Positions 1-27,146 of a DNA stretch of 64,000 nucleotides are shown piece by piece; position 1 is the first letter of the stretch, and each line of letters begins with the position of its first letter. The position numbers and the translations under genes are program-made. This DNA comes from a bacterium (lineage in GTDB: Bacteria; UBA10199; 2-02-FULL-44-16; JAAZCA01): assembly GCA_021810905.1 (NCBI GenBank), contig JAJZQH010000003.1:1897-65896 (forward strand). Direction: 5' to 3'. The notes beneath the pieces were generated by a model. That model had not been told where the DNA came from and made no database searches. It saw only the letters and a list, made by a program, of their open reading frames with translations.

Positions 1-3000
1 AAAAGCAGGCGAAAGAGCGCCGCAAAGAGCACCATAAAGAGGCTCGAATGATTCTCCCGTGCCAGCGCCTTTAGCTTGTGCGCCACATCCTGACTGATGA
101 CAGTTCGATATTGCGCGGTTCTCCTGTCCGCGACGTCTCCTCCCTCACTATCGTGCGGCATCGAGGGGATGAAGAGTTCCGTCTTCTGTAAGGCATCCCT
201 CCAAAAGTCGATTTCAGGCTGTATCAATCTCCTGTCGCTCAGAAATCGGCGGTGCCATTCCGAATAATCACGAAACTGAAGCGAAGGAAGACCTGGCGTA
301 AAGCGCTCGCCGCCGTGTCGAGATCGCAGCATGGCCTCGATTTCGCGCTTCAGATTGTACAAGGACCACCCGTCTCCTATAATATGATTCATCGCGAAGA
401 GGAGATCCGATCCAACATCTCCGTTCTGCACCATGACCGCCCTGAAGAGCGATGGTTCCTCCAAAGCAAAAGCCGCGTCGCCTTCCTTCGCGGCGAGTGC
501 AGCAAACTCCGTCGCTACCTTCTCCCCTCTCTCGTTGGAAAGATCGACCATCCTGAAATGCAGCCGCCCGGTCTCGTGAATCCGCTGAAATACGCAGCCA
601 TCCTCCTCTTCGAACGATGTCCGCAAGCTTTCATGCCTGCGGACGATCAGGCAAAGCAACTCTTGAAGAACATCCGCCTCCACATTGTCGTCGAGATGCA
701 TGGTAAAGACCATGTTCGACGAGGCATCAGCCGGCTCCTCGCGATATCGCCGCCAGATCCTCTTCTGCGCGATGGTAGCATCATAGCGATCACAATCAGA
801 CGCAGGACGGATGATATATCGGCTTGCTCCCTCCCGCCGATTTCTCAACATTTCCGCAAGCGAGGCGATCGTCGGATGAATATAAATCGTCCTGATCCTG
901 AGATCCGCATGGAAGATGCGGTTCACGGCATTCATAACCTGCATCGCCCGCATCGAATGACCGCCGAGATCGAAGAAATCGTCATCTATACCGACTTCCT
1001 CCACACCCAGTTCGCGCTTCCAAATCTCTATCAATTGATTTTCCAATTCATCTTGCGCGCCGCGCCCGCCAGCACGCGGTCTCGTCGCCCCCTCTCGCTC
1101 TCCAGGACGGATCGGCCCTTCACATGTCAGGGCCGCATTCAATTCGCCACACTCGCCGATCCGCAGATCCGGATAATCCAGAATCTCCATGATTATCCGT
1201 TCAAAGGCCGAGACATAAGATCGGACTGTCGCCCCACTGAGTAGATTCGGGGCAAAAGCGAAGGATAAATGCAGTCCGCGCTCAACGTCATGAACGTGCA
1301 ATGCGAGCGGAAATTTCGCCGAGACGAAATCACCTTCTATTTTCTTGAATGAAGCATCCCCTATAAAGAGATGCGTAAAATCATGACTAACCTGACCGAA
1401 CATGACATCAAAGAGCTGCGCATGAGTGGATATTCCGTTCGCGTAAAGCCGGCCGACGAGATATTCAAACTGATACTCAGACCGATCATATCCTTCGAGG
1501 ATCACACCTCGCACACGGCGCATGAACTCACGCCATGTCAGATTCGAGCACATACAAAATCGCAGGGGTAACGTGTTGACGAACAGGCCGACCACTCGAT
1601 CGAACTCCGCGTTTTTACGATCCGTGAAGGGCATGCCGATGGTCACGTCCTTGCCGCCCGCAGCCCTCGAAAGGAGGACCGTCAGCGCCATCATCAATAC
1701 CATGTAGGTCGTCGCAGATTCCTCCTGTGCGAATCGCAGAAGACGCTCCGCGATACCCGAATCGAGATCGAGGGCGATGGACTCTTCTACGCAATCGAAC
1801 GATGAGAGTTGATCCCCCAGGATTGGAAGGGATTTTGTCTTCTCAATATCGCGGCATCGTTCTGACCAATATGCCTCATGCGCGTGTTTTACCGTGCTCT
1901 CGCGCAACCGCTGATGTTCCGAAAAATCTCTATATTGAAATACAGTCTCTGGGAGGATCTTTCCTCGATAGAGCGCATCCAGATCGTGAAAAAGGACGTG
2001 AGCGGACCGATCATCGAAGATGATATGATGCACGTCCATCGCGAGCACCTTCCTCCCGTCATCATATTCGACCAGGGCAAACCTCAAAAGAGGTGCCCTT
2101 TCCAGGCAAAAGGGACGGACGAACCGTTGCAGGGCACGCGTTTCACCATCGATTCGGTCGATTCGAAATGGAACAGATCGATGAATCCGCTGAAGCATGT
2201 TCCCATGCGCCACCTCGAAGGATGTCCTCAACGACTCATGGCGTTCGATCAGCGCCAGCACCGATGATTCGAGTTTCGGTACGTCGATATCGCCCAATAT
2301 CTCGTAAAAGAGAGGGATGTTATATGCGGTACTCTCCGGATGAAGTTGCTGCAGCAGGTAGAATCGGCGCTGAGACGATGACATTTCATAGCTATCGCGG
2401 GACTCGGTTCGATTGATTTCCGAAGTTGTCAAGACGCCATCGGCCGGAATTTTTCGAGCTAATTCCGCAATGCACGGATGTTCGAAGATATCGCCTATGG
2501 AAATCTCGGCGCCGAATTCGTTTCTGACGCGATCAACGATGCGAAGCGCGATCAAGGAATGCCCTCCGAGGTCGAAAAAATCATCGCGGACTCCCGCGCA
2601 TTCCATGCCGAGCTCTTGTCGCCAGATATCCGCCAGACGCAACTCAACGTCACTGCGCGGGGCCTCATATTCGTCATGAAATTCGGAGACCGCTTCCGAA
2701 AGCGCCGCACGATCCACTTTCCCGTGGATCGTGCGCGGTAACCGCGCCAATGACACAAATCTAGAGGGAACCATATAGCGCGGCAACATCTCCAGCATAT
2801 GTCGCCTAAGCTGCGTAACCCTATTATCTCCGTCAAAGACGACATAGGCCGACAGCGTTTTTTCGTCATGGACCGTTTGATTCACGACAACGACGTTTTC
2901 CTTTACCCCGCGATATGCAGCGATGCACTTCTCCACCTCTCCAAGTTCGATTCTATAACCACGCACCTTTACCTGATCATCGCGGCGGCCTATAAAATCG

Positions 3001-4178
3001 ATATCGCCCTCGGGAAGCATTCGCGCAAAATCGCCCGACCGATACATCCGCTCTCCGGGAACGAAAGGATCCGCGGAAAAGCGTTCCGCCGTCAGCCGCT
3101 CGTCATGGAGATATCCGCGTGATACCGCCGCGCCTGCAATATGGATCTCGCCCACTTGTCCGTCGGAAACTCGGAGTCCATCGTCGCCCATGAGATAGAT
3201 GCGCGTATTCGCAACAGGCTTCCCGACGGGGACATTCTCTCCGGGTTTGGGGCCGGTACGATAGCGATACGTCGTAGCGCAGATCGTCGTCTCAGTCGGA
3301 CCGTATGCATTGATGACGATCATTCGCTCATGCATGTCCTGATATCTTTTGAGGACTTCATCCCGGATCGGCTCGACGCCGACGAGAAGTTTTCGAAGTC
3401 GCAGCGTATCACGGGATCCGCTCAGAATCCTCGATACGTCGTCTATAAATCCAGGCGGAATGTACGCAAAAGTGACACCCTTCTCCCGAATCACATGGGT
3501 AAACTCCTCAACATCGTAGCATTGATCGTTCTTGAGCAGGATCAAACGCGATCCATGAAAAAGCGGGAGAAATATTTCGGCAACGCTCACGTCAAACGAG
3601 ATGCTGGCGCCGGCGAGAAAGACATCCGTTTCATCCAGGCGTCCTTCATAGACATCAGCCATGTGATGAATGAAGTTGGCGAGCTGGGCATGCTCGACCA
3701 TCACGCCCTTAGGCTTTCCCGTGGAACCGGACGTATATATGACATAAGCCAAATCGGACGGATCGGGCTGTACCTCCGGTTCCTCGATATCTCCCCGGAG
3801 GAAGAGGGAATCGTCCAGATCGATCACACGATATTCGTCGCTCCATTTCCACAAACTGCAGCTGCCGGACGTCATCACCACGCTCGATCCGCTCTCCTCC
3901 AGAATGCACTCGATACGCTTTCGCGGATTGGCGGAATCGAGCGGCAGATAGGCACCACCCGCCTTCAGGGCGGAAACCATGCCCACGATCATTTCGATCG
4001 ACCGATCGGCGACGATCCCTACGATTACATCGCGCCCGACGCCAAGCCCGCGGAGCCGATTAGCGATACGGCCCGCCCTCTTGTTCAACTCTCCATAGGT
4101 AATCCCTCGATCGCCGCACTCCACCGCTACGGCCTCGGGCCGCATCCTGCCCCACCTGCCGATAGCTTCAAACACCAT
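1..4178 (-). CDS. Non-ribosomal peptide synthetase, N-terminal part (A-T-C-T-C...), continues beyond the window start
   Basis: Absent from the ORF track because no stop lies in the window. My reverse-strand translation from ATG 4178-4176 reads MVFEAIGRWGRMRPEAVAVECGDRGITYGELN. The A3 core AYVIYTSGSTGKPKG is encoded at 3705-3749. Carrier-protein motifs DDFFDLGGHS have Ser codons at 2556-2558 and 954-956. Condensation His motifs are HHIIFDDRS (HH codons 2025-2030) and NHIIGDG (384-389). Plus-strand ORFs 252..1244 and 3141..4451 are antisense shadows. ATGA start/stop overlap with the upstream gene at 4178. Confidence 0.85.
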   Translation of the reverse strand, partial: MVFEAIGRWGRMRPEAVAVECGDRGITYGELNKRAGRIANRLRGLGVGRDVIVGIVADRSIEMIVGMVSALKAGGAYLPLDSANPRKRIECILEESGSSVVMTSGSCSLWKWSDEYRVIDLDDSLFLRGDIEEPEVQPDPSDLAYVIYTSGSTGKPKGVMVEHAQLANFIHHMADVYEGRLDETDVFLAGASISFDVSVAEIFLPLFHGSRLILLKNDQCYDVEEFTHVIREKGVTFAYIPPGFIDDVSRILSGSRDTLRLRKLLVGVEPIRDEVLKRYQDMHERMIVINAYGPTETTICATTYRYRTGPKPGENVPVGKPVANTRIYLMGDDGLRVSDGQVGEIHIAGAAVSRGYLHDERLTAERFSADPFVPGERMYRSGDFARMLPEGDIDFIGRRDDQVKVRGYRIELGEVEKCIAAYRGVKENVVVVNQTVHDEKTLSAYVVFDGDNRVTQLRRHMLEMLPRYMVPSRFVSLARLPRTIHGKVDRAALSEAVSEFHDEYEAPRSDVELRLADIWRQELGMECAGVRDDFFDLGGHSLIALRIVDRVRNEFGAEISIGDIFEHPCIAELARKIPADGVLTTSEINRTESRDSYEMSSSQRRFYLLQQLHPESTAYNIPLFYEILGDIDVPKLESSVLALIERHESLRTSFEVAHGNMLQRIHRSVPFRIDRIDGETRALQRFVRPFCLERAPLLRFALVEYDDGRKVLAMDVHHIIFDDRSAHVLFHDLDALYRGKILPETVFQYRDFSEHQRLRESTVKHAHEAYWSERCRDIEKTKSLPILGDQLSSFDCVEESIALDLDSGIAERLLRFAQEESATTYMVLMMALTVLLSRAAGGKDVTIGMPFTDRKNAEFDRVVGLFVNTLPLRFCMCSNLTWREFMRRVRGVILEGYDRSEYQFEYLVGRLYANGISTHAQLFDVMFGQVSHDFTHLFIGDASFKKIEGDFVSAKFPLALHVHDVERGLHLSFAFAPNLLSGATVRSYVSAFERIIMEILDYPDLRIGECGELNAALTCEGPIRPGEREGATRPRAGGRGAQDELENQLIEIWKRELGVEEVGIDDDFFDLGGHSMRAMQVMNAVNRIFHADLRIRTIYIHPTIASLAEMLRNRREGASRYIIRPASDCDRYDATIAQKRIWRRYREEPADASSNMVFTMHLDDNVEADVLQELLCLIVRRHESLRTSFEEEDGCVFQRIHETGRLHFRMVDLSNERGEKVATEFAALAAKEGDAAFALEEPSLFRAVMVQNGDVGSDLLFAMNHIIGDGWSLYNLKREIEAMLRSRHGGERFTPGLPSLQFRDYSEWHRRFLSDRRLIQPEIDFWRDALQKTELFIPSMPHDSEGGDVADRRTAQYRTVISQDVAHKLKALARENHSSLFMVLFAALFRLL

Positions 4179-5113
4179 CATAATGCGCCGCCCTTCGTGA
4201 CAGAAGTCTTCCCCTCACGATGCACGTTTGCAAAGATTTCGCCGATGATACCGAGGACTGAAGCGATGGTGATGTTGGAGACATCCAACGATGGGGCGAA
4301 TTCCACGATATCGAAGGCGCGCACTGAAATCGGAAGCGACTCGATCATCTTGAGGAGCACGCTTACCGGGATTCCGGCGGCCACGGGCGTTCCCGTTCCC
4401 GGAGCACAGGATGGATCGAGCACATCCACGTCGACCGACACATACAGATGATCGACACGGCGGGAGATATCTTCAACGCCTCGTCGAAATCGCTCCAGCG
4501 CACCAGTATCGAAGAGAAGTTCGTCTGAGGGCAGCTCGTGAATGCCCGTCCGCTTGATATACGGCATCTCCTCCTGTTCATACGCGCGCGTTCCCACCAG
4601 GAGGCAGTCGGTCGGCCTGATCTCCGTCGTTTCAATCGCGCGACGCAGCGCCGATCCATGTGAGAAAGAAAAACCATGATACGTATCGAGTAGATCGGGA
4701 TGCGCGTCGAACCAGATAACACCCGTCCTCCCTCGCTTCGCCACAGCCTTGAGGATAGGATGGGTAACGGAGTGATCGCCCCCTATGGACACAAGCGTTG
4801 AATCCGTCCCGTCAAGGACGGCGGAACAGCTGCATTCTATGGCGTCGAATGTCTTCATCGCATCGAAGGTGGAAACGTCAACATCTCCAATGTCGAGGAT
4901 CCGTATTGACGACAGGTCATCGCCGCGACGGGATGTCGATTTCAACCTCCCAGTCATGGATCGCACTCGCCCGGGCGCAAAAGCGGCGCCACGCTGGCCG
5001 CCGGCTCCTCCGTCGAATGGTATCCCGAGGATGAGCACGTCGGCATCGCCAGGGGAATTCGCTTTTGTCCCCACTCCGTTCCATGCGCCATATCCTTCGG
5101 ATTTTAAAAACAT
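4178..5113 (-). CDS. Arginase-fold ureohydrolase (agmatinase / guanidino-acid hydrolase-like)
   Basis: ORF 4178..5206. Arginase-family metal-binding motifs GGDHS, DAHPD and SVDVDVLDP. Start moved to ATG 5113 (MFLKSEGYGAWNG), preceded by AGGAGG. Its stop overlaps the NRPS start (ATGA). Confidence 0.8.
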   Translation of the reverse strand: MFLKSEGYGAWNGVGTKANSPGDADVLILGIPFDGGAGGQRGAAFAPGRVRSMTGRLKSTSRRGDDLSSIRILDIGDVDVSTFDAMKTFDAIECSCSAVLDGTDSTLVSIGGDHSVTHPILKAVAKRGRTGVIWFDAHPDLLDTYHGFSFSHGSALRRAIETTEIRPTDCLLVGTRAYEQEEMPYIKRTGIHELPSDELLFDTGALERFRRGVEDISRRVDHLYVSVDVDVLDPSCAPGTGTPVAAGIPVSVLLKMIESLPISVRAFDIVEFAPSLDVSNITIASVLGIIGEIFANVHREGKTSVTKGGAL

Positions 5114-5238
5114 AACATTCCTCCTATTCGAGAGCCCGTAACCCCGGACATTGCATGCAGGTCGAGTGTCCCAAAAAACAGCCCCGACAAAACGCTGGCT
5201 GGTCATGCATCATCCATGGGCACACAGTGATATTGCGC

Positions 5239-5823
5239 CTAGGGAATCGGCACAACGTTGAACTGGAACTGGGTCCCATCGACGATCTTCCGTTCAATGC
5301 TGTCAAGATCGCTCACGACTGCACAATAAGACGCCAGCCAATCAAGCGCCCTCTGTTTGTCGCTGTCACGGGTGGAGACCACTCCGTCGGACGGTACGAT
5401 CACATGATAGCCCCGGAAATAAGCATCCGCCGCCGTCGTTTGCACACATATCTGCGTCTGCATACCTGTGATGACGATGGTATCGACACCCAGCACCTTA
5501 AGACGTTCGTCGAGTTTCGTCTCGAAGAACCCGCTATCCTTATTCTTCTCAACGATGATATCACGATCATCGAGGTAGTCCTGTGCTATCATTGCGCCCT
5601 TTGTACCGCGCAGGACGGGCAACACGCCGTTATGAAGCTCCGCGTGGTTGTCGTCCTCGTCATAGATCAGCTGAAGATGGACGATTGGAATATTCATCTC
5701 GCGCATTTTTTTGAGAAAGCGGATCATCGAAGGAGCGAATCGCTCGACCTGCTTGCGGCGCTCTTCATTCTTGTTAATGAGGTCATACTGCAGATCGTTG
5801 GTTAAAATTGCATATCGCGCCAT
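5239..5823 (-). CDS. Isochorismatase-family cysteine hydrolase
   Basis: ORF 5239..5895. Start moved to ATG 5823 (MARYAILTNDLQ) behind GGGGAG. Family-typical segment DTIVITGMQTQICVQTTAADA carries the nucleophile Cys. Confidence 0.75.
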   Translation of the reverse strand: MARYAILTNDLQYDLINKNEERRKQVERFAPSMIRFLKKMREMNIPIVHLQLIYDEDDNHAELHNGVLPVLRGTKGAMIAQDYLDDRDIIVEKNKDSGFFETKLDERLKVLGVDTIVITGMQTQICVQTTAADAYFRGYHVIVPSDGVVSTRDSDKQRALDWLASYCAVVSDLDSIERKIVDGTQFQFNVVPIP

Positions 5824-5878
5824 TTTGGACTCCCCTAAATATTGAACAACAAATTCGTGCACAATAGCTTCCATTCGC

Positions 5879-7294
5879 TCAGATGGACCGACCAATATTC
5901 CTCTTCATCATTGTTGAAAATCGCGAAAGTCCATCCTTCCAGATTTCGAAAATCTCCTGCTCGTCGAGATATTCTGTTCTGGTCACGGATGGCTGATCTT
6001 CTCGCCAGCTGTCAAAGTTTTCGCCAATAATCGTCAAATGATAGCGTTCGAAATTATGGTAGAGGTCGGTCCCCGGATAAGGCGTCGTGATATAGTACTC
6101 CACGATATCCGCGAGCCCCTCTTCGAGCAGCTTTTCGGCATAGGCGATCGTCCGGTAGGCGGTATCCCTCGATTCGCCAGGCAGCCCAACCATCCAGTAA
6201 AGGAGGACATTCAGCCCGGCATCCTTGGCCATTTTACAGGATGCTCTGATCTGCTCGACTCGAATTCCCTTCCGGATGAGATCGAGTAATTCCTGGTTCG
6301 CACTCTCCGCGCCGTACTTGATGAGCCGGCAATTGCCCTCATGCATCTTTCGGAGGATTCGGGGGGTCACAAGATCGCAACGCGTCTGAGCGATCCATCG
6401 AAAACCCCGGTTCCGCATCTCCATTCCAAACTCCTCCACATAGGAGGGATTCGTCGTGAATGATTCATCGCCGACATAAAGCAGATCTATGTCAAAATAT
6501 TTTCGTAGAAGTTCCGCCTGCGTTACGGTTCGCTCCATACTCTGATACAACGGTTTTCTCCCCTTCCAGATCGTGTCCGCACAATACGCACAGTTATAGG
6601 TACAGCCCCTCGACGTATAGATCCGGGCGAAAGGAATCTGACCGCGATAGATGTCGTTCGGTATGAGATGATATGCCGGCATAGGGAGACGATCGGATAT
6701 GATCGCTTCCTTGCTGAATGGATTTACATTGATCTCACCATCACGTTTCCACGAGATTCCCGGGATACCTCTAAGATCTCCGCCATCATGGAGGCACCGT
6801 AATAGATCTGGCAGGATGAATTCGCCCTCCCCTCTCACAACGATATCGATATCCTCCTCTTCCAGGCATGAGCGATCCGTATAGGACACATGTGGTCCGC
6901 CAAGAACAACGAAGACATCTCGGCCCAGCACTTTTTTGACCAATCGGGAAACGCGAACGGCAACGCTGAAACTATTGGTAAAAGGCGACATGCCAACCAC
7001 ACGAGATGTGACCTGGCTGAGTTCCCTCGCAATGGCATCATAGTCGATGTCGCATCCGGAATAAGATGTGAGATCCAGGACATCTGCGGTCAAGCCTTCG
7101 TGCTCAAGGGTTCCCCCCAACGCGGCAATCCAAAGCGGGAGCTCCTTGATGTCGTAGATCGGGGCTTTTACGAATTTTCCACCGATTCTCCGTTCAAAGA
7201 AATCCCAGTAGACATCATAAAACGCGCTCTCCTCTTTATGAATGAACGGTTTCGCGATCAGCGGAAGCTGGATAAACGTAAAATCACTGTTCAT
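5879..7294 (-). CDS. B12-binding-domain radical SAM enzyme
   Basis: ORF 5879..7294. N-terminal Rossmann/cobalamin-binding-like part (VVGMSPFTNSF...VVLGGPHVS). Radical SAM cluster motif CTYNCAYC (CxxxCxxC). ATGA overlap with the hypF stop at 7291-7294. Confidence 0.8.
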   Translation of the reverse strand: MNSDFTFIQLPLIAKPFIHKEESAFYDVYWDFFERRIGGKFVKAPIYDIKELPLWIAALGGTLEHEGLTADVLDLTSYSGCDIDYDAIARELSQVTSRVVGMSPFTNSFSVAVRVSRLVKKVLGRDVFVVLGGPHVSYTDRSCLEEEDIDIVVRGEGEFILPDLLRCLHDGGDLRGIPGISWKRDGEINVNPFSKEAIISDRLPMPAYHLIPNDIYRGQIPFARIYTSRGCTYNCAYCADTIWKGRKPLYQSMERTVTQAELLRKYFDIDLLYVGDESFTTNPSYVEEFGMEMRNRGFRWIAQTRCDLVTPRILRKMHEGNCRLIKYGAESANQELLDLIRKGIRVEQIRASCKMAKDAGLNVLLYWMVGLPGESRDTAYRTIAYAEKLLEEGLADIVEYYITTPYPGTDLYHNFERYHLTIIGENFDSWREDQPSVTRTEYLDEQEIFEIWKDGLSRFSTMMKRNIGRSI

Positions 7295-9630
7295 GATATT
7301 TCCTCGTCTCCAATCGATGAGCGGCCAAACTGGAGACCCGCGATGATCGCCTGTCCAAGCGACACACCGCCGTCATTGCTCGGAACCCTCGAATGCCTAT
7401 AAACGGAGAACCCGTCGTGCGTGAGAGAGCGGTAACAATGCGAGAGAAGAAATTCATTCATGAAGACACCGCCGCTCAAGACGACCTTCGCAAGCCCATG
7501 CGTGAGCCGGATGCGATGACAAACGTCTCTGACAATATCTACGATCGTTTGATGAAAACGACGGCTGATAACGCCAAGCGAGATGCCACCTCGCACGAGG
7601 AGATCCACGATCTCACGAATCATCGGCCGCATATCAATCATCCCAGAGGATGTTGATTCCATGAAGTCATAAGAGAACGATGTAAATTCATCCTCTCCGT
7701 CCGCCATGATGTATTCGAGTGCCATGGCCGCATGCCCTTCATGGGAAATTGACTCGATCACGCCGATAAGCGCGGAAACAGCATCAAACAAGCGGCCCAT
7801 GCTCGACGTTTGTGGAGAATTGATCCCTTGTTTCGCCATACGCAGAAGGAGATCCAGTTCGTCGCCCTGTCGTTCTCGGATAATCGGCAGGGGGAGTTCA
7901 CGAAGCACGTGCTCATCGTAGATCTGTGAAAGAATACCTATCGCCGTTCTATAGGGATGCTGCACAGCTTTATCTCCACCCGGAAGCGGAAAAGGCCGCA
8001 GGCAGGCAAAACGCTGAAATTGTTCATAACCTCCGACAAGGAACTCACCGCCCCAGATGCTGCCATCGGCGCCGTATCCGGCTCCATCGAAGATGACGCC
8101 GATCACGTCCTCATCCAGGCCATGCTCGCACATACATGAAGCCATATGGGCATGATGATGTTGAACCCTGACCACAGGAAGATGTTCCATTTCCTCGGCA
8201 TAGGCGCTCGTCAGAAAATCCGGATGGAGATCGCATGCTACAAGCTCAGGCGCAATATCATAGCTCGCCCTGATATGATCGATGATCTCACGGAGGAACC
8301 GGTAGATATATTGATTATTGATATTTCCTATATGTTGACTGACGAACATCCTCCTGTCCTTTGTCAGGCATATCGTGTTCTTCAGATCTGCACCGAGCGC
8401 CAACACGGAAGGAAGGGTACGATGGCACATGATCGGATGGGGGGCATATCCGCGCGCTCGGCGGAGTATCTCAACATGATGGCCATCCCCATTCGAGCCC
8501 ATACATCTGACGATCGAATCGTCGATTCTGATATGGATATTGCGGTCATGCGAAAGAAAAAAATCTGCGACGTCTTCGAGCTTCGTCAAGGCATCGTCGT
8601 CATCGCTGATGATCGGCTCATCAACCGCATTGCCGCTTGTGGCCACAAGTGCCGGAAAATGACCCCGGAGCAAGAGATAATGAAGGGGTGTGGAAGCAAG
8701 CATGACTCCGTAGCGACGGTTATCCGGGGCTACAGCCTGGCAAATGAGATCGTTCTTCTTCTTTCGGAGCAAAACGATGGGACGTTGTGGGGAAGCAAGC
8801 AACTGCCGTTCATCCTCCGAAACATGCGCAAAACAACGTACCTTGTCGATTTCGTCGGACATCATCGCAAAAGGCTTGAGGCTGCGCCGCTTCCTCCTGC
8901 GCAACTCGTTGACGGCGTCTTCCTGCGACGGATCAACCATTAAATGATAGCCGCCTAGCCCCTTGACGGCGATAATTAACCCTTGCCGCAGAAAATTCAC
9001 GGTTTCAAGGATGGGATCGCGGGTATCTACCGGCTCGCCATCTCGCCGCTTGAGAAAGAGCTGCGGTCCGCACTTCCAGCACGCATTGGGCTCTGCGTGA
9101 AATCGTCGATCCGACATATCCTCATATTCATCCATGCATTCCTCGCACATCCGGAACACATGCATCGTCGTATTGCACCGATCGTAGGGAATGTCCTTGA
9201 TGATGGAGTATCGAGGCCCACAATTCGTGCAGTTGATGAAAGGGTAACGATGCCGCCGGTCGGCGGGGTCGAAGAGTTCAGACAAACACTCGGAACAGAT
9301 GCTGGCGTCGGGAGAGATGAGTGTTTCGCGTGAGGCATCTTGCCTGCTCTCCAGGATGCGAAACTCCTTATGGAGGCCAGTCGCCTTTTCGACTGAGATG
9401 AGCTTGATCTCATCAACGACGGCCATGGACGGCGCATCGAATTTGAGCTCCTGAATGAATTTCGCGCTTTCCTCCTGCGGCCCTTCAATTTCGACAACCA
9501 CGCCCCGTGAATTGTTGAGGACCCATCCGCGAAGATCGTATTTCTTGGCGACGCGATAGACAAAGGGCCTGAATCCTACTCCCTGTACGATCCCGCTGAT
9601 CAGATATCGGCGCACTTCAAACATGGCCAT
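7291..9630 (-). CDS. hypF: Carbamoyltransferase HypF (full-length architecture)
   Basis: ORF 7291..9630. Acylphosphatase-like N-terminus ISGIVQGVGFRPFVYR. Two zinc-finger pairs (CSECLSEL..CTNCGPRYSI and CEECMDEY..CWKCGPQL). YrdC-like AVKGLGGYHLMVD. Kae1-like C-terminal half with VQHHHAHMASC. GGAGG RBS upstream. Confidence 0.9.
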   Translation of the reverse strand: MAMFEVRRYLISGIVQGVGFRPFVYRVAKKYDLRGWVLNNSRGVVVEIEGPQEESAKFIQELKFDAPSMAVVDEIKLISVEKATGLHKEFRILESRQDASRETLISPDASICSECLSELFDPADRRHRYPFINCTNCGPRYSIIKDIPYDRCNTTMHVFRMCEECMDEYEDMSDRRFHAEPNACWKCGPQLFLKRRDGEPVDTRDPILETVNFLRQGLIIAVKGLGGYHLMVDPSQEDAVNELRRRKRRSLKPFAMMSDEIDKVRCFAHVSEDERQLLASPQRPIVLLRKKKNDLICQAVAPDNRRYGVMLASTPLHYLLLRGHFPALVATSGNAVDEPIISDDDDALTKLEDVADFFLSHDRNIHIRIDDSIVRCMGSNGDGHHVEILRRARGYAPHPIMCHRTLPSVLALGADLKNTICLTKDRRMFVSQHIGNINNQYIYRFLREIIDHIRASYDIAPELVACDLHPDFLTSAYAEEMEHLPVVRVQHHHAHMASCMCEHGLDEDVIGVIFDGAGYGADGSIWGGEFLVGGYEQFQRFACLRPFPLPGGDKAVQHPYRTAIGILSQIYDEHVLRELPLPIIRERQGDELDLLLRMAKQGINSPQTSSMGRLFDAVSALIGVIESISHEGHAAMALEYIMADGEDEFTSFSYDFMESTSSGMIDMRPMIREIVDLLVRGGISLGVISRRFHQTIVDIVRDVCHRIRLTHGLAKVVLSGGVFMNEFLLSHCYRSLTHDGFSVYRHSRVPSNDGGVSLGQAIIAGLQFGRSSIGDEEIS

Positions 9631-9652
9631 TTGCGCCTCCGCAATAACGTAT

Positions 9653-10675
9653 TCAGCATAGTCTCGGAAGTTCAGCCCCCTGCAGCAACTGGACGATTTT
9701 TTCCTCCCCGCCTTCGCCGCACATCACGACGTGGCAATCATCACATTCTAACACTTTACCGATGACCGATGCGTGTTCCCCATATCGATGCCGACGGAGC
9801 GTTTCGACAATCCCCTTGCTCGCTCCGGAGGAAGCGAAGATGCAGACATTCCCTTCATTGGCGAGGTAGAGAGGATTTACGCCCAGCATGTCCGCGGCCA
9901 TAACGGTCTCATGCAGGATGGGAAGCCGCACCTGTTCGATGCGCACGCCGAACCCCCCTAGCTGCGAGATCTCGTTTAAGAGCGTTCCCAACCCGCCACG
10001 CGTGATATCGCGCATGCAATGAATACGATTCCCAAACTCTTTCAGCACACCCGCAATCATATCGTTGAGTGGAGCGCAGTCGCTTTGAATCCGCCGTTCG
10101 AACCCCAACCCTTCACGAATTGAAAGTATATGGATGCTGTGATTGCCGAGCTGTCCGGAGATGATGACATCGTCGCCTGGCCGAATGGACGATATCGAAA
10201 GATGTATATCATTAGGCTGAAAAATACCGATGCCGGATGTGTTGATAAAAATCTTGTCGACCTCGCCGCGTTTGACGACCTTCGTATCCCCGGCAACGAT
10301 ATACACTTCCGCCTCCAGTGCCGCGTCACGGATGGAATGCAGGATCTGTTCGAAATCCGAAAGCGGGAAGCCCTCCTCCAGGACGAAGGCGAGCGTCAGG
10401 TACAGCGGCTTGGCGCCGCTAACAGCCAGGTCGTTCACCGTGCCGCAAACGGCGAGCTTACCAATATTCCCGCCGTGAAAAAAAATCGGATCCAGAACAA
10501 AAGAATCGGTGGTGATAGCAATGCGATCGGCCTTCCACTCGAGTACGGTGCTGTCCTCCATCTGGCCTCGGTGGGTCTCACCGAGGCATCGCACGATGAC
10601 ATCTCTGATGAGATCCCCACTCAACTTGCCACCGGTTCCGTGATCGAGCACAATGCGATCTGACAGATAATTCAT
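9653..10675 (-). CDS. hypE: HypE (carbamoyl dehydratase, PurM-like) with C-terminal PRLC
   Basis: ORF 9653..10693 (TTG-initiated in the track). Likely ATG at 10675 (MNYLSDRIVLDHGTGGK). AIR-synthase-related fold motifs. The protein ends ...GAELPRLC, matching the PR[IV]C terminal-cysteine motif of HypE. Confidence 0.88.
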   Translation of the reverse strand: MNYLSDRIVLDHGTGGKLSGDLIRDVIVRCLGETHRGQMEDSTVLEWKADRIAITTDSFVLDPIFFHGGNIGKLAVCGTVNDLAVSGAKPLYLTLAFVLEEGFPLSDFEQILHSIRDAALEAEVYIVAGDTKVVKRGEVDKIFINTSGIGIFQPNDIHLSISSIRPGDDVIISGQLGNHSIHILSIREGLGFERRIQSDCAPLNDMIAGVLKEFGNRIHCMRDITRGGLGTLLNEISQLGGFGVRIEQVRLPILHETVMAADMLGVNPLYLANEGNVCIFASSGASKGIVETLRRHRYGEHASVIGKVLECDDCHVVMCGEGGEEKIVQLLQGAELPRLC

Positions 10676-10700
10676 TTCCAAGCCGCCTATCAATAAAAGA

Positions 10701-10716
10701 GCAACGATGGTGCCAA
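10701..10716 (-). promoter_or_regulatory. Sigma-54 (-24/-12) promoter candidate for the hypE-hypF-rSAM-hydrolase-NRPS operon
   Basis: The minus strand reads TTGGCACCATCGTTGCT (TGGCAC-N5-TTGC). The -12 GC lies ~25 nt upstream of the hypE ATG at 10675. An A/T-rich tract lies further upstream (10800-10850). Confidence 0.6.
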
Positions 10717-10874
10717 ATTTCGCGAGTCACCGGCAAAGCCAGAGATTATACGGTCCGCACAAAATAAGCCCTTCGCAAACATAGTGAGCACAGTGTTACA
10801 CATGCAAAAAAAAAGCAAGGGCAATACAAATGAATTCATATCCCAAACCTTACAGGTCGAAAAGTTAACCGCGC

Positions 10875-10913
10875 TCAAAAATGAGAGAACGGGAGGGGAC
10901 GTCCCGTTCTCTC
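10875..10913 (-). terminator. Rho-independent terminator of the small gene 10935..11228
   Basis: Perfect 12-bp stem GAGAGAACGGGA (10883-10894) / TCCCGTTCTCTC (10902-10913) with a 7-nt loop. On the minus strand it is followed by ATTTTTGAG. Confidence 0.7.
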
Positions 10914-10934
10914 AGGTTGAACTGCTTCGAAAAC

Positions 10935-11228
10935 CTATGCCTCTTTAGGCGATCTGTGATAGCGATTCTTACGCTTGCCATCGCGTTGATTGAGCTCATG
11001 ATATATGAAAGTGGACAACGTCTTGATGACTCTCTCTTCCAGGGGGAGGAGATTCTCTCGCGCCAGCTCTCTCTTCCACCTCTTCGATATGCCGCGAAGA
11101 AAGAGGACGATGCGCTCCACCGTGCGGCCGTCCAGGTGTCCGATGCGGACGTCGGCCTTCTGAATCCTGTTATGGTCAAATCTCAGAGGCCTGAAATCAG
11201 CATTCAAGCGCTTCAAGAACGCCTGCAT
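10935..11228 (-). CDS. Small basic hypothetical protein (97 aa)
   Basis: ORF 10935..11228, followed by its own terminator hairpin. No family recognised. An overlapping plus-strand ORF (10881..11237) looks less coding-like. Confidence 0.4.
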   Translation of the reverse strand: MQAFLKRLNADFRPLRFDHNRIQKADVRIGHLDGRTVERIVLFLRGISKRWKRELARENLLPLEERVIKTLSTFIYHELNQRDGKRKNRYHRSPKEA

Positions 11229-11300: not shown

Positions 11301-11939
11301 CTATCGGAAATAGGATGCGATCAACGAGGCTGCGATGAAGGCCATGATGCACCCGATGATGATATCCAGCCACCTCCATACGACGGCTCTCTTCAAGATG
11401 GAAGAGAGAAGGTGCGAGAAGAGCGCCAACGCGGAAAACCAGAGGAGTTCCGCCAGAAAAATGCCGAGGAGAAAGAAGGGCCTTTGAGGGAGAGATAATT
11501 GCCCGCCGACGCTGCCGATCAGGACGATGTTGTCCAACAGCGCATGCGGATTTAACCAGGAGAAGGCGAGAGTCGAGGCGACGATCTTTCCCAACGTAGG
11601 ACCGTTCGGCATGCCTCCGTTTGCGTTGAGGACTTTCGGTCTGATCGCCGACTTGAAGGAGAGGAATCCGTAATACAGGAGAAACAGGGCTCCTCCCCAA
11701 AGGGCGACGTTTTTCACCGTGGGCGAACGGGAAATGAAGAACCCCACGCCGTAGACCCCGGCCACGGCGAGGGAGACGTTCAGGATGATCGAGAGGGCGG
11801 CGATCGTCAGGACGTGTTGACGTTGCAGCCCCTGCCGCAGGACGAACGCATTCTGCGCGCCGATGGCAACGATGAGGCCGAGATTGAGGGCCAGTCCCTG
11901 GGAGAGAGGAGTGAGCGAGCAATCCATCAAGTTCATCAT
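11301..11939 (-). CDS. LysE/ArgO-family basic amino-acid exporter
   Basis: ORF 11301..11939. Aligns by eye with ArgO: GAQNAFVLRQG, WGGALFLLYYGF..FK, WLNPHALLDNIVLIGSVGGQL. Six hydrophobic segments. Confidence 0.85.
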   Translation of the reverse strand: MMNLMDCSLTPLSQGLALNLGLIVAIGAQNAFVLRQGLQRQHVLTIAALSIILNVSLAVAGVYGVGFFISRSPTVKNVALWGGALFLLYYGFLSFKSAIRPKVLNANGGMPNGPTLGKIVASTLAFSWLNPHALLDNIVLIGSVGGQLSLPQRPFFLLGIFLAELLWFSALALFSHLLSSILKRAVVWRWLDIIIGCIMAFIAASLIASYFR

Positions 11940-16385: not shown

Positions 16386-17618
16386 TCAGCATCCGACCGG
16401 ACATCCGCATACTCCCGGCACGCTCGTGCCTGGCACACTCGTGTCGGGCGGGCATTGCGAATTCGAGGTACAGACCCCGCCAGTGTCGCAGTAGCAGGTA
16501 CAGTCTGTTCCGCCGGTGTTGCCTCCTGTATTGCCGCCGCCCGTGTTTCCGCCTCCACTGCCCGTGGATGCGGGGCATGCCCCCCAGGTGCAACCTGTAC
16601 CGCACTGTTTTGTGCCATCAGGATAGCAGGGCATGTACGAGCCCGGCGTGCACTGATAATCGTTCGGGCACGTGGGAAGTATTGCACCAGGACTGACGAC
16701 GCCGCTCTGTTGTAACGAGCCTGGTGAGATGTAAGTGTTTGCCATAGTGACGAGCCCGCTGCCGTCGTTCATGACCTGGACGGCGCTGTCGAGCGTGTTG
16801 CTGGATACATCAAGCGCCGCGCTCACGCAGGACCCCGCATCTCCGAGCGTGCATTTAAAGACGTCGACTCCCGTAAGAATGCTTCCGGCGTCCCCGAGAT
16901 TTTCGAGCCACGTCTCGTCGCCCATCACCACAGTTGCAGTCGTCACGATGACGCCGGCGCACGGAAGCGCCATTGCGCCGAGGGAGACTGTCGTGGCTAC
17001 ACCGCAGGCGCCTACGGAAATGCCCAGCCCCGCAAACTTGAGCAGCTCCGCGAGGTTTTTGACGTCGGAGTCGCAGGCCGGGAAGCAGGTCGACTTGGTT
17101 GAAGCCGAACTGCTGCTGACGGCACTGGCGCCACCGGCGCCGGTAATTAAGTTCGAGGCTTCCGCGGGAACGCTAACCCTCCTGAACACTTCTACGTAAT
17201 CTGTCGGAACGTAGATCTTCGCGATATCGACCGTCCCCGCGCTCAGGTCCCAGTTGGAGAAGAGAAGGATGAAGTCGCCCATGACCGTCCTGTAAGGCAG
17301 CCCGTCGGCGCCAAAGAAAACCGCCACATTGCCGCCCGTGGCGTTGGTCCAGAGTGCGCCCACAATCTTCTCGGTGGTTCCGCTGGAACCGGGAATCGCA
17401 TTGCTCACCAGCGGGAGGAGCATCTCGCCGTCTTTGTTCACCATAATCGCGCCGAGCGAATCTTTGCTCTGCATCACGGCCGCGACCTCGGGCGTATTTT
17501 CGTTGCTGCCGCTCGTACTCCCAGCGCTCCCGCTTCCGCTCGTTCCGCTGCCTACCGATATGCATGAAACGACAGACGGAAGAAAGCAGAGCATCATCAT
17601 AACCAGTATTTTTCTCAT
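16386..17618 (-). CDS. Cys-rich lipoprotein, unknown function (paralog of 52619..53983)
   Basis: ORF 16386..17618. Lipobox LPSVVSC and AGGAGGG RBS. Gly/Asn/Thr linker, then a Cys-dense C-terminus. It shares a near-identical 49-aa core with the 52619..53983 protein. Confidence 0.75.
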   Translation of the reverse strand: MRKILVMMMLCFLPSVVSCISVGSGTSGSGSAGSTSGSNENTPEVAAVMQSKDSLGAIMVNKDGEMLLPLVSNAIPGSSGTTEKIVGALWTNATGGNVAVFFGADGLPYRTVMGDFILLFSNWDLSAGTVDIAKIYVPTDYVEVFRRVSVPAEASNLITGAGGASAVSSSSASTKSTCFPACDSDVKNLAELLKFAGLGISVGACGVATTVSLGAMALPCAGVIVTTATVVMGDETWLENLGDAGSILTGVDVFKCTLGDAGSCVSAALDVSSNTLDSAVQVMNDGSGLVTMANTYISPGSLQQSGVVSPGAILPTCPNDYQCTPGSYMPCYPDGTKQCGTGCTWGACPASTGSGGGNTGGGNTGGNTGGTDCTCYCDTGGVCTSNSQCPPDTSVPGTSVPGVCGCPVGC

Positions 17619-17712
17619 AATCCCTCCTGCACGTTATGCGGCGCCAGATAGCTCATGTCGCAACCATTGTCTAGGTCTGCTTTCAACGGAATCGCAAAAA
17701 AAACGGCCCAAA

Positions 17713-19077
17713 CTATCTCTGCTTCGCGAACATCACCGGCACCTGTATGCCGCCGCCGCTCACGTTCACCTTGAAGCCGCGGTTGGTGGCGCGCGTGATG
17801 AATCCGCCCACGTTGAAGTTGGTGAAGCGCGCACCGTCCCAGTCGTAGTGGACGTAGACGCCGACGTCTGCAATCACGCGCCTGGGTCTGGAGAGAAAAC
17901 CTGCCACGTCAATCGTATTGAGATCGATGCGATCCTGGAGAACCCAGTACTTGTGATCTTTATGAAGTATGCGCGCGAGCCGCGCTGGAATTTTTTTCCC
18001 AACAAATACGTGCTCGCCTCCCATGCCATCAGCGTACTTGAGCACGAGCCTTGAAGGACGATGGAGCGCTTCTTCTTCGTTGCCTCTCAACAATCTCGCA
18101 GGAACGATCGTATCCGCGAGCCTCTCCGCGCGCGCCTCGCCTATGAGGCGCCTGAGAATATTTTTATCCTCGAGCACGGTGAGGATCGTCTTTGGCGCTA
18201 CGAGTCCAGTGATGAACGGACTGTAGTGAGGTGTCTCGGACCGCACGAGGTCGCGGAAGAATCCCGGGGCCTCTTTCAAATCTTTGAGTTCGAAGCTGTA
18301 CGAGAGCTGGAATGCATCCGGAGGCCTTGTATTTGCTCCGATCTGCAGCTTGCCATCCCTGAGACGGACGCATTCGCGCGAGAGGAGTTTGCAATCTTCA
18401 TCGAGCTTCACCTTGAAGGCGGATGGAGAGACGAGCCGCATGTCGAGTCCGATCGCGCGCGCCTTTTTAAGGATCACCTCCTCTTCCCAGTTGTACAGCT
18501 CGTACTGGAAGCGCACGAAACGCCTGCCGAGCCTTCGCATGTTGCGCACTTCGCTCGCGGCGGTATCGAGGCATATCACCTCGCGCCTAAGTATCGGAAA
18601 GAGCTTGAGGATCGTCTCTTGAATGAACGACGAGCGGCCGGTTCCGTCGAAGCCGATATCGTTCACCTCCATGAGCTTCGGCGGATTATCGGGACTGGGC
18701 TTTCCCACCACCGCCATATCGAATCGCAGGCTGCCGATGATGCGCCGCTTTCTGTGCTTGAGCACGCCGAGCTCGCGGATCATATACTCCGAGATAGGCG
18801 TTGGCGGCAGGAGTTCCCTGATCTCGTCGGAAGGCAGCGAGAGAATCCGCATGAGCGATTCGGTGATATCGCGACACGTGCGCCTTATGACCGGAAGATA
18901 CGACGCGGGAAGGATGCGCGGGAGCGCGGAACAATCGTGATCGTTGATGCCGATGAGCCCGGAATCCGCGAACTCGTTCCACAGCTCGGCCTTGAGAGCT
19001 CTGAGGTCGCGCTCCCTGAAGAGCCTCGCGAGCTTCGATGGAAGGGCCTCGTGAAAATGACGGTGTCTTGGAAACAT
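17713..19077 (-). CDS. Circularly permuted ATP-grasp-like (glutathionylspermidine-synthase-like) protein
   Basis: ORF 17713..19077. An E-x-N type motif (KLMEVNDIGFDG) lies in the N-terminal third. A K/G-rich nucleotide-loop-like segment (LVLKYADGMGGEHVFVG) lies near the C-terminus, the reverse of classical ATP-grasp order. Assignment is by motif order only. Confidence 0.45.
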   Translation of the reverse strand: MFPRHRHFHEALPSKLARLFRERDLRALKAELWNEFADSGLIGINDHDCSALPRILPASYLPVIRRTCRDITESLMRILSLPSDEIRELLPPTPISEYMIRELGVLKHRKRRIIGSLRFDMAVVGKPSPDNPPKLMEVNDIGFDGTGRSSFIQETILKLFPILRREVICLDTAASEVRNMRRLGRRFVRFQYELYNWEEEVILKKARAIGLDMRLVSPSAFKVKLDEDCKLLSRECVRLRDGKLQIGANTRPPDAFQLSYSFELKDLKEAPGFFRDLVRSETPHYSPFITGLVAPKTILTVLEDKNILRRLIGEARAERLADTIVPARLLRGNEEEALHRPSRLVLKYADGMGGEHVFVGKKIPARLARILHKDHKYWVLQDRIDLNTIDVAGFLSRPRRVIADVGVYVHYDWDGARFTNFNVGGFITRATNRGFKVNVSGGGIQVPVMFAKQR

Positions 19078-21882: not shown

Positions 21883-23403
21883 TCACGGATTATCGGAGCG
21901 CCGTCGTCGGAAATCCTCGAGAAATTCCGCTAGAGGCATTTTGAATTCGCCTGATCCGCCGTTCGCCATCGAGTTCCGCCACATCAATCCAGCAAGGCGC
22001 TGCTGAACGCCCTCGTCCTCTATGACGAGCGCTTCCAGGAGCAGGTTGCGACCGCCTTGCGCGCAGTTCGAGAGAATGAATAAGAGCGGGGCATCATTGC
22101 GCATTTCAAGACGTTCCCGCATCTTTCGCAGATTTGCGAGCAGCGAATTGAAAACCTTCACCGCATTCTTGTTGCCGATGAAGACAATATCGCGGTTCAT
22201 CAAACCGCCCAATCCAGGGGTTTCGCCGGTTTTCAGCCAAAGCTCAAGAGAGCAGCGAAAGCCGTGCTCCCCATAGACCGTCGCAAATCCGGGTCGCAGC
22301 TCAAAGCCCGCGTACCTCATCATCTCGAAGAGCGCTACGTGGAACCCTGGTCTCCACGTATCGTCATCAAAGACGATGAGCATGGAACCGCCTTCCGAGA
22401 TCCGCCTTTCGCATCCGCACAGGAGCTCATGCATCCTGGTGAGGTACATACGATCGAATGTGTGCAGGGGATCCATCTCCCAGTCCATCGCCTCAGGGTG
22501 TACCCACGTCACCAGATCAAAGGTCTCAAGAGAGTCGCCATCATCCGCAAGGCCCTCAATAAATCCGGATTGCACCATCCCACATCCGTCTCCGGCACGG
22601 ACCTGATGAATCTTTCCCTCAGGATCGTCCCCAAGAGCGCACTGAAACTCTTTGAGATTGATCCTGGCGCCCTCCAATTTCCAACTCAAGACATCAAATC
22701 CGATAGTCTTCACGAGACCCGGAAGCGCCAGTCTCATCCCCAAATTCTCGTACCATTTCCCCGCGCCGACCGAAAGTACGGTGCGCGCCTCACACTTCTT
22801 TCCGACTTCCTGATAGAGGAGTATTTGCGCGGTATCGTAATACAATCTTGGGACGAGTTCGTCGGCGCCTCCGCCATTATAGAAATGTTGATAGAGCCTC
22901 AGCAGATCATACCGCTGCGCAGCGACAAGCTGTTCGACCGAGAAGTGATCTCTGCTTGCAGACAGTGCCCGCGGCACTGAGTCCCTCAACTCGATATTTT
23001 TTTGAATCCATTGCGGGAGTTCAATGAGATGGTTCCCCGCAGCTTGCTGCGGGGTTTCCGCCACCATCTCCCTTGAGGGGAGAGGGAAGGGTGAGGGTGA
23101 TCGTCGATGTTGCCGGTGATACCCCGCGGCTTGCCGCGGGGAGCATTCATTTTCCGGAGCCGACTGTTCGCGATCGCGCGTGACTGGCAGTCGCGGAGTA
23201 ACCGGCCCAGGCGCGCCACGATATTGATCGCCAACCGCCACATATTCCGACGCCACGTCATTCAGGCATATACCCTGACGGGAATCGGGCAGCGGTATAA
23301 TATCATCGTCGCAGACCACGAACACTTCCTCTGCACCGGATTCCTCTGCAGGCAGCCCGTCTGCCGCGGCCATTACATCGAGATTTAACGGTTTTACGGT
23401 CAT
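21883..23403 (-). CDS. Hypothetical protein with class-I SAM-methyltransferase-like core; the ORF reads through a MITE copy
   Basis: ORF 21883..23403. Good RBS (AGGAGA) before ATG 23403. Rossmann MTase-like motif series VLSVGAGKW / IGFDV / FDLVTWVHP / ISEGGSMLIVF. Residues ENECSPRQAAGYHRQH...AAGNHLIEL are encoded by the repeat at 23021-23151. Confidence 0.5.
   Translation of the reverse strand: MTVKPLNLDVMAAADGLPAEESGAEEVFVVCDDDIIPLPDSRQGICLNDVASEYVAVGDQYRGAPGPVTPRLPVTRDREQSAPENECSPRQAAGYHRQHRRSPSPFPLPSREMVAETPQQAAGNHLIELPQWIQKNIELRDSVPRALSASRDHFSVEQLVAAQRYDLLRLYQHFYNGGGADELVPRLYYDTAQILLYQEVGKKCEARTVLSVGAGKWYENLGMRLALPGLVKTIGFDVLSWKLEGARINLKEFQCALGDDPEGKIHQVRAGDGCGMVQSGFIEGLADDGDSLETFDLVTWVHPEAMDWEMDPLHTFDRMYLTRMHELLCGCERRISEGGSMLIVFDDDTWRPGFHVALFEMMRYAGFELRPGFATVYGEHGFRCSLELWLKTGETPGLGGLMNRDIVFIGNKNAVKVFNSLLANLRKMRERLEMRNDAPLLFILSNCAQGGRNLLLEALVIEDEGVQQRLAGLMWRNSMANGGSGEFKMPLAEFLEDFRRRRSDNP
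23021..23151 (-). mobile_element. MITE/REP-like three-hairpin element, copy a (inverted, inside ORF 21883..23403)
   Basis: The reverse complement aligns end to end with copies at 46752, 52424 and 55828 (aatgaatgctccccgcggcaagccgcgggg...ccccgcagcaagctgcgggg..catctcattga). Confidence 0.8.
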
Positions 23404-23471
23404 ATATCTCCTGCCCTGACGACATGGACGTTATCGCAGAATTCCTGAAAAAGTTGCTCGATATTCGCACC

Positions 23472-23631
23472 CAAATCCGACACTTGAATTATCACTCAAA
23501 TCCTCCCTCCCTTGATGGGAGGGAGTTTGAGGGAGGGTGACCATGAAGACTTTCGTCACCCAAGGAATGAGTACCACCCTCTCCCTAACCCTCTCCCATC
23601 AAGGGAGAGGGAATTTTTTGTGTCGGATTTC
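23472..23631. repeat. Palindromic hairpin-cluster element bounded by an 11-bp inverted repeat
   Basis: AAATCCGACAC (23472-23482) pairs with GTGTCGGATTT (23621-23631). Internal hairpins are CTCCCTCCC-ttgat-GGGAGGGAG, GGGTGAC..GTCACCC and CCCTCTCCC-atcaa-GGGAGAGGG. It lies between divergent genes. Confidence 0.6.
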
Positions 23632-27145: not shown

Positions 27146-27146
27146 C

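Follow-up and report, generated by a model that had tools for sequence, protein, structure and literature searches.

The last gene of an operon on the minus strand of a 64,000-nucleotide stretch of bacterial DNA (GTDB lineage UBA10199, assembly GCA_021810905.1, contig JAJZQH010000003.1, positions 1,897 to 65,896; hereafter the window) encodes a nonribosomal peptide synthetase (NRPS) whose second module consists of a condensation (C) domain and a thiolation or carrier (T) domain without an adenylation (A) domain. The enzyme is a complete, free-standing two-module NRPS of 1,560 amino acids (aa) with the arrangement A-T1-C1-T2-C2. In the preferred reading, given a probability of about 0.4, the single A domain would load both T1 and T2, C1 would make a dipeptide, and C2 would release it, most plausibly onto an amine made by the cassette of HypE, HypF, radical S-adenosylmethionine (SAM) and ureohydrolase enzymes encoded upstream. 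The A-T-C-T-C architecture joins others already known; what is novel is the cassette.

Architecture of the synthetase

On the minus strand, positions 1-4181 of the window are one uninterrupted reading frame that starts with the ATG at 4181, overlapping the stop codon of the upstream ureohydrolase gene, and specifies residues 1-1393 of the 1,560, the 3' end lying beyond the left edge of the window. A homologue search found an identical (100%) full-length protein of 1,560 aa (P0001; contig DAHVYM010000026.1, assembly GCA_027327785.1), and the same protein is recorded in NCBI, ENA and Logan assemblies. P0001 ends 5 aa beyond C2, and the protein has no thioesterase (TE) or reductase (R) domain; therefore, A-T1-C1-T2-C2 is the whole synthetase. 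The remaining top homologues are generic multimodular NRPSs, approximately 35% identical over the A-T-C portion only.

The A domain (aa 9-497, positions 2691-4157, minus strand like all domains of the gene) matches Pfam AMP-binding (aa 10-358, E=7e-81), AMP-binding_C (aa 415-488) and TIGR01733 (402 bits versus a cut-off of 317), and its core motifs SGSTG and YGPTE and the A10 Lys are all present. Pfam PP-binding matches two stretches (aa 515-576 and aa 1049-1112, E=2.7e-32), corresponding to T1 (aa 513-580, positions 2442-2645, Ser542 codon at 2556-2558, also found by profile hidden Markov model, HMM) and to T2 (aa 1047-1114, positions 840-1043, Ser1076 codon at 954-956), which has no cognate A domain and is nonetheless a normal PP-binding domain with the motif GGHS (the sub-segment alone scores 56 bits). 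Pfam Condensation likewise matches two stretches (aa 595-1011 and aa 1132-1555, E=8.6e-118), and both domains are full-length: C1 (aa 595-1011, positions 1149-2399) and the terminal C2 (aa 1130 onward, positions 1-794, complete to aa 1555-1559 in P0001), the latter found also by profile HMM and domain ranking. Between C1, which ends at aa 1011, and T2, which starts at aa 1047-1049, the usual place of an A domain is taken by a Pro/Gly/Arg-rich linker of approximately 35 aa (aa 1012-1046, positions 1044-1148), so there is no room for an A domain. Neither an A domain nor a remnant of one was detected there by Pfam or in the translation, and the frame is unbroken. The rule of one A domain per elongation module (C-A-T colinearity) is thus broken, module 2 being C-T only.

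The preliminary description of this DNA, made from the letters of the window alone, had arrived at the A-T-C-T-C order and at a second module lacking its A domain, and the Pfam matches and the short C1-T2 linker confirm both. Its four motif positions all hold on the minus strand (GGHS, 2567-2556; HHIIFD, 2030-2013; GGHS, 965-954; NHIIGDG, 389-369), and its spacings of about 177, 357 and 189 aa agree with the 176 (Ser542-His718), 358 (His718-Ser1076) and 189 (Ser1076-Asn1265) residues counted here. The motif variants to which it drew attention, HHIIFDDRS in C1 and NHIIGDG in C2, are real and rare. It had also suggested extending the sequence past the window and reading the code of the A domain; the first places the end of the synthetase, which it could not see, just after C2 in P0001, and the second yields DVAYLGAICK. 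A collapsed assembly, which it named as grounds for abandoning the idea, is not indicated by the repeats, the reading frame at the junction or the records from three sources, as set out below.

The frequency of such modules was estimated in 302 NRPS proteins, a sample biased towards large NRPSs and annotated with purpose-built A, T and C profile HMMs. Of the 1,097 T domains, 21 (1.9%) come straight after a C-family domain, too close to it for an A domain to fit between, and the order A-T-C-T-C occurs 13 times in 12 proteins, including the present NRPS (in which this annotation puts the C1-T2 gap at 36 aa). The A-less second module is therefore an uncommon but recurrent, already known design. 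In HMWP2 (A-PCP1-Cy2-PCP2, where PCP is a peptidyl carrier protein and Cy a heterocyclisation domain), both carriers are charged in cis by a single A domain, which also charges a third in trans (PMC9547227). The A domain of SidD (A-T-C-dA-T-C) loads its monomer iteratively, A-less T domains are inferred to rely on the A domain upstream, and modules 4 and 5 of SidC have no A domains at all (T-C-T-C) (PMC8162485). The second carrier of AmbE is loaded in trans by the partner NRPS AmbB (PMC4357302), and trans loading of A-less modules is also reported for WS9326A and thalassospiramide (review PMC10510592, section 5.4.2).

Each of these systems resembles the present NRPS in part. SidD and SidC are the closest match in overall architecture, with a single working A domain and, in SidD, a terminal C domain instead of a TE, but they are fungal siderophore synthetases (for fusarinine C and ferricrocin) whereas the present NRPS is bacterial; SidD retains a degenerate A remnant where the present NRPS has only its short linker, and the siderophore tailoring genes of those systems (N-hydroxylase, acyltransferase) are not present beside it. 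HMWP2, of yersiniabactin synthesis, is likewise bacterial with one A domain and two carriers, but its intervening domain is a Cy domain with DxxxxD, unlike C1 with HHxxxD, and it belongs to a larger line of NRPS and polyketide synthase modules and has no terminal C domain, unlike the present NRPS. AmbE, from the AMB pathway of Pseudomonas aeruginosa, has T1-C*-T2 with an A-less T2, and the A domain of AmbB loads two carriers (PMC4357302). The C domains of AmbB and AmbE are among the weaker PDB matches of the present C domains, and the AMB cluster includes a LysE-type exporter (PMC4357302), as is found near the present operon. However, loading in the AMB system crosses two proteins, AmbE ends in a TE, its C* is an atypical modifying domain, and the cluster encodes Fe/alpha-ketoglutarate oxygenases and, unlike the present operon, no HypE/HypF, radical SAM enzyme or ureohydrolase.

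It is highly improbable that the metagenome assembly collapsed or chimerically joined a genuine A-T-C-A-T-C gene and so deleted its second A domain. The genome was indeed assembled from a metagenome, and repeats abound in NRPS genes; but the two T regions share no DNA repeat and none lies around the C1-T2 junction, the junction is in frame with a linker of normal appearance, a homologous collapse would take out one module of A-T-C-A-T-C entirely, leaving A-T-C rather than A-T-C-T-C, the identical protein is recorded from three sources, and 11 other sampled proteins share the arrangement. The sole notable DNA repeat within the gene, of 59 nucleotides at 73%, corresponds to the RHExLRTSF motif conserved in C1 and C2. 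On the same ground, the lack of any DNA-level repeat linking the T regions, recent internal duplication or collapse was ruled out.

Among solved structures, C1 is closest to the C domain of the tyrocidine synthetase 3 PCP-C structure (2jgp, E=8.5e-63). It has an ordinary C5 motif (GLFVNTLPLR), and its motif HHIIFDDRS keeps the catalytic second His and the Asp, the Gly-Trp after the Asp being replaced (G-to-D, W-to-R); the HHxxxDD variant is carried by 8 of the 1,130 C-family domains, including members of regular multimodular assembly lines. On these features C1 appears to be an ordinary elongation-type C domain. The possibility that C1 is an epimerization (E) or X domain was ruled out: 2jgp is by far its best PDB match, and the TycA E domain (2xhg) is not among its matches at the threshold used. 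The same E domain is a weak match of C2 (E=3.5e-7). In C2, the motif NHIIGDGWS has Asn at its first position and keeps the catalytic second His and Asp, and the C5 motif, GYFVDPVIVR, is divergent. Only 5 of the 1,130 C-family domains have NHxxxD, and two of the five are C2 itself and a relative discussed below.

The HypE/HypF cassette and its partner enzymes

The operon, tightly spaced and on one strand, runs in the order hypE, hypF, B12-radical-SAM gene, isochorismatase-like hydrolase gene, agmatinase-like ureohydrolase gene, NRPS gene. HypE (positions 9653-10675, minus strand as are all of these genes) scores 421 bits against TIGR02124 (cut-off 252) and ends in PRLC. HypF (positions 7291-9630) is a full-length carbamoyltransferase with all five domains present (acylphosphatase, Zn fingers, YrdC and Kae1-like among the Pfam matches) and scores 798 bits against TIGR00143 (cut-off 466). 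The B12-binding radical SAM enzyme (positions 5879-7294), identified by profile matches, has the CxxxCxxC motif, and the start of its gene overlaps the hypF stop codon. It is followed by an isochorismatase-family cysteine hydrolase (positions 5239-5823; Pfam and NCBIfam matches) with weak similarity to RutB and biuret hydrolase, of the type that lies behind the radical SAM gene in all cassettes described here. The arginase-family ureohydrolase (positions 4178-5113) is agmatinase-like (Pfam Arginase, E=4e-64; TIGR01230, 162 bits versus a cut-off of 174) with the Mn-ligand motifs GGDH, DAHPD and DVDVLDP all present.

Orthologues of the radical SAM enzyme, 57-60% identical, were found on contigs that bear the same cassette: an arginase-family ureohydrolase, one or two isochorismatase-like hydrolases, HypE, HypF and the B12 radical SAM enzyme. 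With the window (positions 4178-10675) included, the cassette is present in at least six unrelated contexts, and its partner enzymes differ. It accompanies an ATP-grasp ligase in Heliomicrobium gestii (L002, 5197-13288), a 2,102-aa NRPS with the order A-T-C-A-T-C and an MFS transporter in SRA assemblies (L004-L006; L004, 1-12029), and glycosyltransferases and a methyltransferase in another SRA assembly (L007, 1836-9933); two short contigs contain the cassette only (L117, 1911-8571; L119, 635-7236). In L007, a Transposase_20 gene (3322-4290) is inserted between the radical SAM gene and the remainder of the cassette. The C-terminus of HypE is ELPRLC in all four cassette copies checked (window, L002, L004 and L007). 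No hypC, hypD, hypA/B or hydrogenase gene was found near the cassette in the six loci (among the main open reading frames, ORFs, examined in the 64-kb window and among the genes called at L002, L004, L007, L117 and L119).

A scan of genome contigs also found a partial cassette in a metagenome-assembled genome of an uncultured Ruminococcus (L010, 10001-13679), made up of the radical SAM gene, an isochorismatase-like gene and, spread over two reading frames, an arginase-family gene, with no HypE or HypF gene within 18 kb; this may be a decayed or rearranged copy. A phage-type integrase gene and a YhcG nuclease gene are close by. JGI metagenome contigs scanned with the radical SAM alignment gave no close relatives (at most 36% identity). 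Relatives of lower identity to the radical SAM enzyme (33-41%; L120, L121, L011, L037, L039 and L042) still adjoin an arginase-family gene, and in two of these loci (L120, 10001-17551, and L121) the neighbours are a second radical SAM gene, a fusion of S-adenosylmethionine decarboxylase with spermidine synthase, and a GNAT gene. Because of these polyamine-related neighbours, the gene context suggests that the radical SAM-ureohydrolase pair may act on agmatine- or polyamine-type substrates.

In maturation of [NiFe]-hydrogenases, HypF carbamoylates a thiol and HypE dehydrates the carbamoyl group (PMC12130793, PMC4506123). The present pair scores as equivalogs of those proteins, and the PRxC cysteine of HypE, the carrier of the carbamoyl and then the cyano group, is kept; but unlike in hydrogenase systems, these HypE and HypF are fixed beside a B12 radical SAM enzyme and hydrolases of the ureohydrolase and isochorismatase-like types, together with ligases that vary. 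To our knowledge, bona fide HypE and HypF have so far been tied to the cyanide ligands of [NiFe]-hydrogenases. No description of the cassette was found in the literature searched on HypE/HypF with NRPSs or natural products, the only similar published remark found being that hypE and hypF lie beside an ATP-grasp gene in Streptomyces, made in a genome-mining study (PMC7794033).

The two cassette-linked NRPSs were compared domain by domain. In pairwise comparison with the L004 NRPS, the present A domain resembles its second A domain (A2), C1 resembles its C1 and C2 resembles its C2. When ranked against all sampled domains, the L004 terminal C domain is the best match of C2 among 1,098 C domains (291 bits), L004 A2 ranks 11th of 1,006 for the present A domain, L004 C1 ranks 373rd for the present C1, and the T domains are related to the L004 NRPS only unspecifically. 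C2 and the L004 terminal C domain both carry the rare NHxxxDGWS and the GYFVDPVIVR motif. Other searches with C2 were less discriminating: a word-index search for homologues of C2 alone found nothing but weakly matching, unrelated C domains and missed even its own protein, and in an exhaustive HMMER search of cluster representatives the top 150 were filled by giant multi-C NRPSs through summed scores. By the ranking, C2 is the only domain specifically related between the two NRPSs, and the present NRPS is thus a mosaic of a generic A-T-C unit and a cassette-specific T-C2 end.

Because C2 alone is specifically shared by both cassette-linked NRPSs, a link of the cassette to the terminal C2 is more plausible than one to the loading of T2. 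The replacement of the NRPS elsewhere by an ATP-grasp ligase or by glycosyltransferases suggests that the product of the cassette is what becomes ligated; the NRPS, the ATP-grasp enzyme and the glycosyltransferases would then be alternative decorators of one cassette product.

Proposed loading of the second carrier and release by C2

In the preferred reading, the single A domain would activate one alpha-amino acid, X, and charge both T1 and T2 with it, either within one polypeptide or between two copies of the protein; HMWP2 and SidD are precedents for the former, and the loading of AmbE T2 by AmbB is one for the latter. C1 would then join T1-bound X to T2-bound X, giving X-X-S-T2. The residues Asp235 and Lys517 of the A domain indicate a probable alpha-amino acid substrate, and the pocket predicted by the code DVAYLGAICK (obtained by an HMM alignment that also returns the canonical Thr, Val, Cys, Orn, Gly and Asp codes) is large and has no acidic residue; the nearest code in the sample, DVAYLGGICK, is the same at 9 of 10 positions and occurs in three unrelated NRPSs. 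With no TE or R domain and a protein that ends after C2, C2 is predicted to be the release domain. It would free the dipeptide, most likely as an amide with a free amine from the HypE/HypF/radical-SAM/ureohydrolase cassette. Alternatively, it might cyclise the dipeptide to a diketopiperazine or support iterative oligomerisation like that of SidD. Hints of release onto an amine are the divergent C5 motif GYFVDPVIVR common to C2 and the L004 terminal C domain, and the agmatinase-like neighbouring gene; the distant radical SAM relative encoded with the decarboxylase-spermidine synthase fusion and an agmatinase-type gene likewise points to chemistry on amines or polyamines. In glidonin synthesis, a C domain releases the peptide onto putrescine: in module 13, as has been proposed also for malleobactin and bicornutin, the C domain at the end of the line condenses the peptide with a free amine (PMC10587159), and the present C2 is encoded beside an agmatinase-like gene. 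The glidonin module is C-A*-T-TE, however, whereas the present NRPS ends in a bare C domain.

Several points weigh against this reading. The visible sequence covers the smaller part of the genome and stops 1.7 kb past the NRPS gene, so that a stand-alone A domain or A-T protein may be encoded elsewhere. Comparison of the code DVAYLGAICK with published codes gave no substrate assignment. The G-to-D and W-to-R changes beside the catalytic motif might impair C1. Orthology of the A domain with L004 A2, from which the same residue might be expected on T2, is weakened by the rank of L004 A2, only 11th of 1,006. Likeness of T1 and T2, considered as a sign of a shared A domain, was dropped and gives no support: the two are 44-46% similar, not above the background median of 51.5% for consecutive T pairs in 742 normal modules.

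For T2, the preliminary description allowed only trans loading or non-canonical chemistry, which is too narrow in view of published cases in which one A domain loads two carriers (HMWP2 and SidD); loading by the NRPS's own A domain is judged at least as likely as either. Loading in trans, by a stand-alone A domain or A-T protein encoded elsewhere, possibly with a shuttle resembling a type II thioesterase, would lead to a heterodipeptide X-Y released by C2. It is possible, though somewhat less likely than the preferred reading. Documented cases are AmbE T2 (PMC4357302) and the A-less modules of WS9326A and thalassospiramide (PMC10510592), only part of the genome is visible, and the L004 NRPS uses two different A domains (codes DLFILGCVFK and DAMFIGAICK), so that the ancestral product may have been a heterodipeptide. 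However, the nearby stand-alone A domain that the preliminary description proposed looking for was not found: there is no other AMP-binding, NRPS, A-T, MbtH or thioesterase gene among the main ORFs examined in the approximately 60 kb upstream or among the genes called in the 1.7 kb downstream. In addition, the cluster is compositionally distinct (53.2% versus at least 55.9% G+C) and looks like a self-contained acquired island.

The companion proposal, that the upstream enzymes supply a tailored substrate to T2, is not supported: Pfam and NCBIfam identify no ANL-type adenylating enzyme or carrier-loading transferase among them, and the cassette also occurs without an NRPS. In its most specific form, T2 would receive a unit other than an amino acid from the cassette, for example through carbamoylation of its phosphopantetheine thiol by HypF. 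The translational coupling of the genes in one operon and the known chemistry of HypF, which moves a carbamoyl group to a thiol for dehydration by HypE (PMC12130793, PMC4506123), speak for it. It is nevertheless distinctly unlikely: the HypE proteins of the cassette keep the PRLC acceptor cysteine, so HypF has its normal target; the cassette accompanies the L004 NRPS, in which T2 is paired with an A domain, and L002, L007 and L117 contain the cassette but lack an NRPS; and C1, which looks normal, needs an amine nucleophile on T2, for which the nitrogen of a thiocarbamate would be poor. It is also unlikely that C1 and T2 are vestigial, with C1 inactivated by the change to HHxxxDD-R and the enzyme effectively one module that hands X to C2. 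The substitution of the Gly and Trp past the catalytic Asp is rare (8 of 1,130), and only C2 is family-specific. Yet neither C1 nor T2 is truncated, and the catalytic His and Asp, the carrier Ser and the remaining core motifs are all intact; multimodular NRPSs that are otherwise regular also contain the HHxxxDDWS variant; and 1.6 kb of dead coding sequence without a frameshift or stop codon would be surprising.

Surroundings of the cluster and implications

Just upstream of hypE is a strong terminator-like hairpin with a 13-bp stem and a T run (positions 10882-10914, minus strand; 3268-3300 of L001, where the window coordinate is 14182 minus the L001 coordinate), which is the probable upstream boundary of the operon. 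Beyond it is a LysE/ArgO-type basic amino acid exporter gene (positions 11301-11939, minus strand; Pfam LysE; TIGR00948, 172 bits, below the cut-off), which may be part of the cluster although the hairpin lies between exporter and operon. Between exporter and hairpin, an ORF of 97 aa (positions 10935-11228) without a Pfam or NCBIfam match is a called gene in the public record. Downstream of the NRPS gene are small ORFs, either helix-turn-helix (HTH) or of no known type, and the contig (DAHVYM010000026.1) ends 1.7 kb further; an excisionase-like HTH_17 gene and small ORFs follow the cluster near the contig end (L001, 14917-16401). The G+C content of the cluster (window positions 1-10882) is 53.2%, compared with 55.9-59.8% in every window of the same size within positions 12000-64000, and is consistent with a horizontally acquired island.

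Elsewhere in the window, the host looks diderm, encoding a phosphate-selective porin and an AcrB pump. Housekeeping blocks (positions 25409-31729 and 45443-48059) include kdpA, kdpB and a kdpD sensor gene, and the phosphate-selective porin beside an alkaline phosphatase. Nine large ORFs of 410-615 aa have no Pfam match at E<=1e-5 (positions 16386-19077, 21883-25210, 31766-35507, 48162-50009 and 52619-55677), and the genome of the host is poorly characterised. The sole recognisable feature of a protein of 877 aa (positions 19175-21808) is a sigma-70 region 4 at its extreme C-terminus (aa 820-864), and a protein of 323 aa (positions 39403-40374) matches the thaumatin family (Pfam, E=6e-15), which is mostly eukaryotic.

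The present NRPS is a compact bacterial example of a non-colinear synthetase (1,560 aa, no A remnant, a terminal C domain), and its small size would suit biochemistry on one A domain serving two carriers. The NRPS may tentatively be regarded as one of several interchangeable ligase partners of an undescribed cassette in which HypE and HypF would have been recruited to small-molecule biosynthesis, passing a cyano or carbamoyl group derived from carbamoyl phosphate from the cysteine of HypE to a metabolite of the amine or guanidine type; the product, which might be a cyanamide, a nitrile or a guanidino compound, would then be attached to the dipeptide by C2. The cassette of HypE/HypF, radical SAM enzyme and ureohydrolase appears to be a mobile one recruited to secondary metabolism, moving between unrelated bacteria and coupled to differing ligating enzymes. 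If its HypE and HypF do act on a small molecule, they would have a testable role outside hydrogenase maturation and would represent a new way of making natural products of the cyano, carbamoyl or guanidino type by enzymes.

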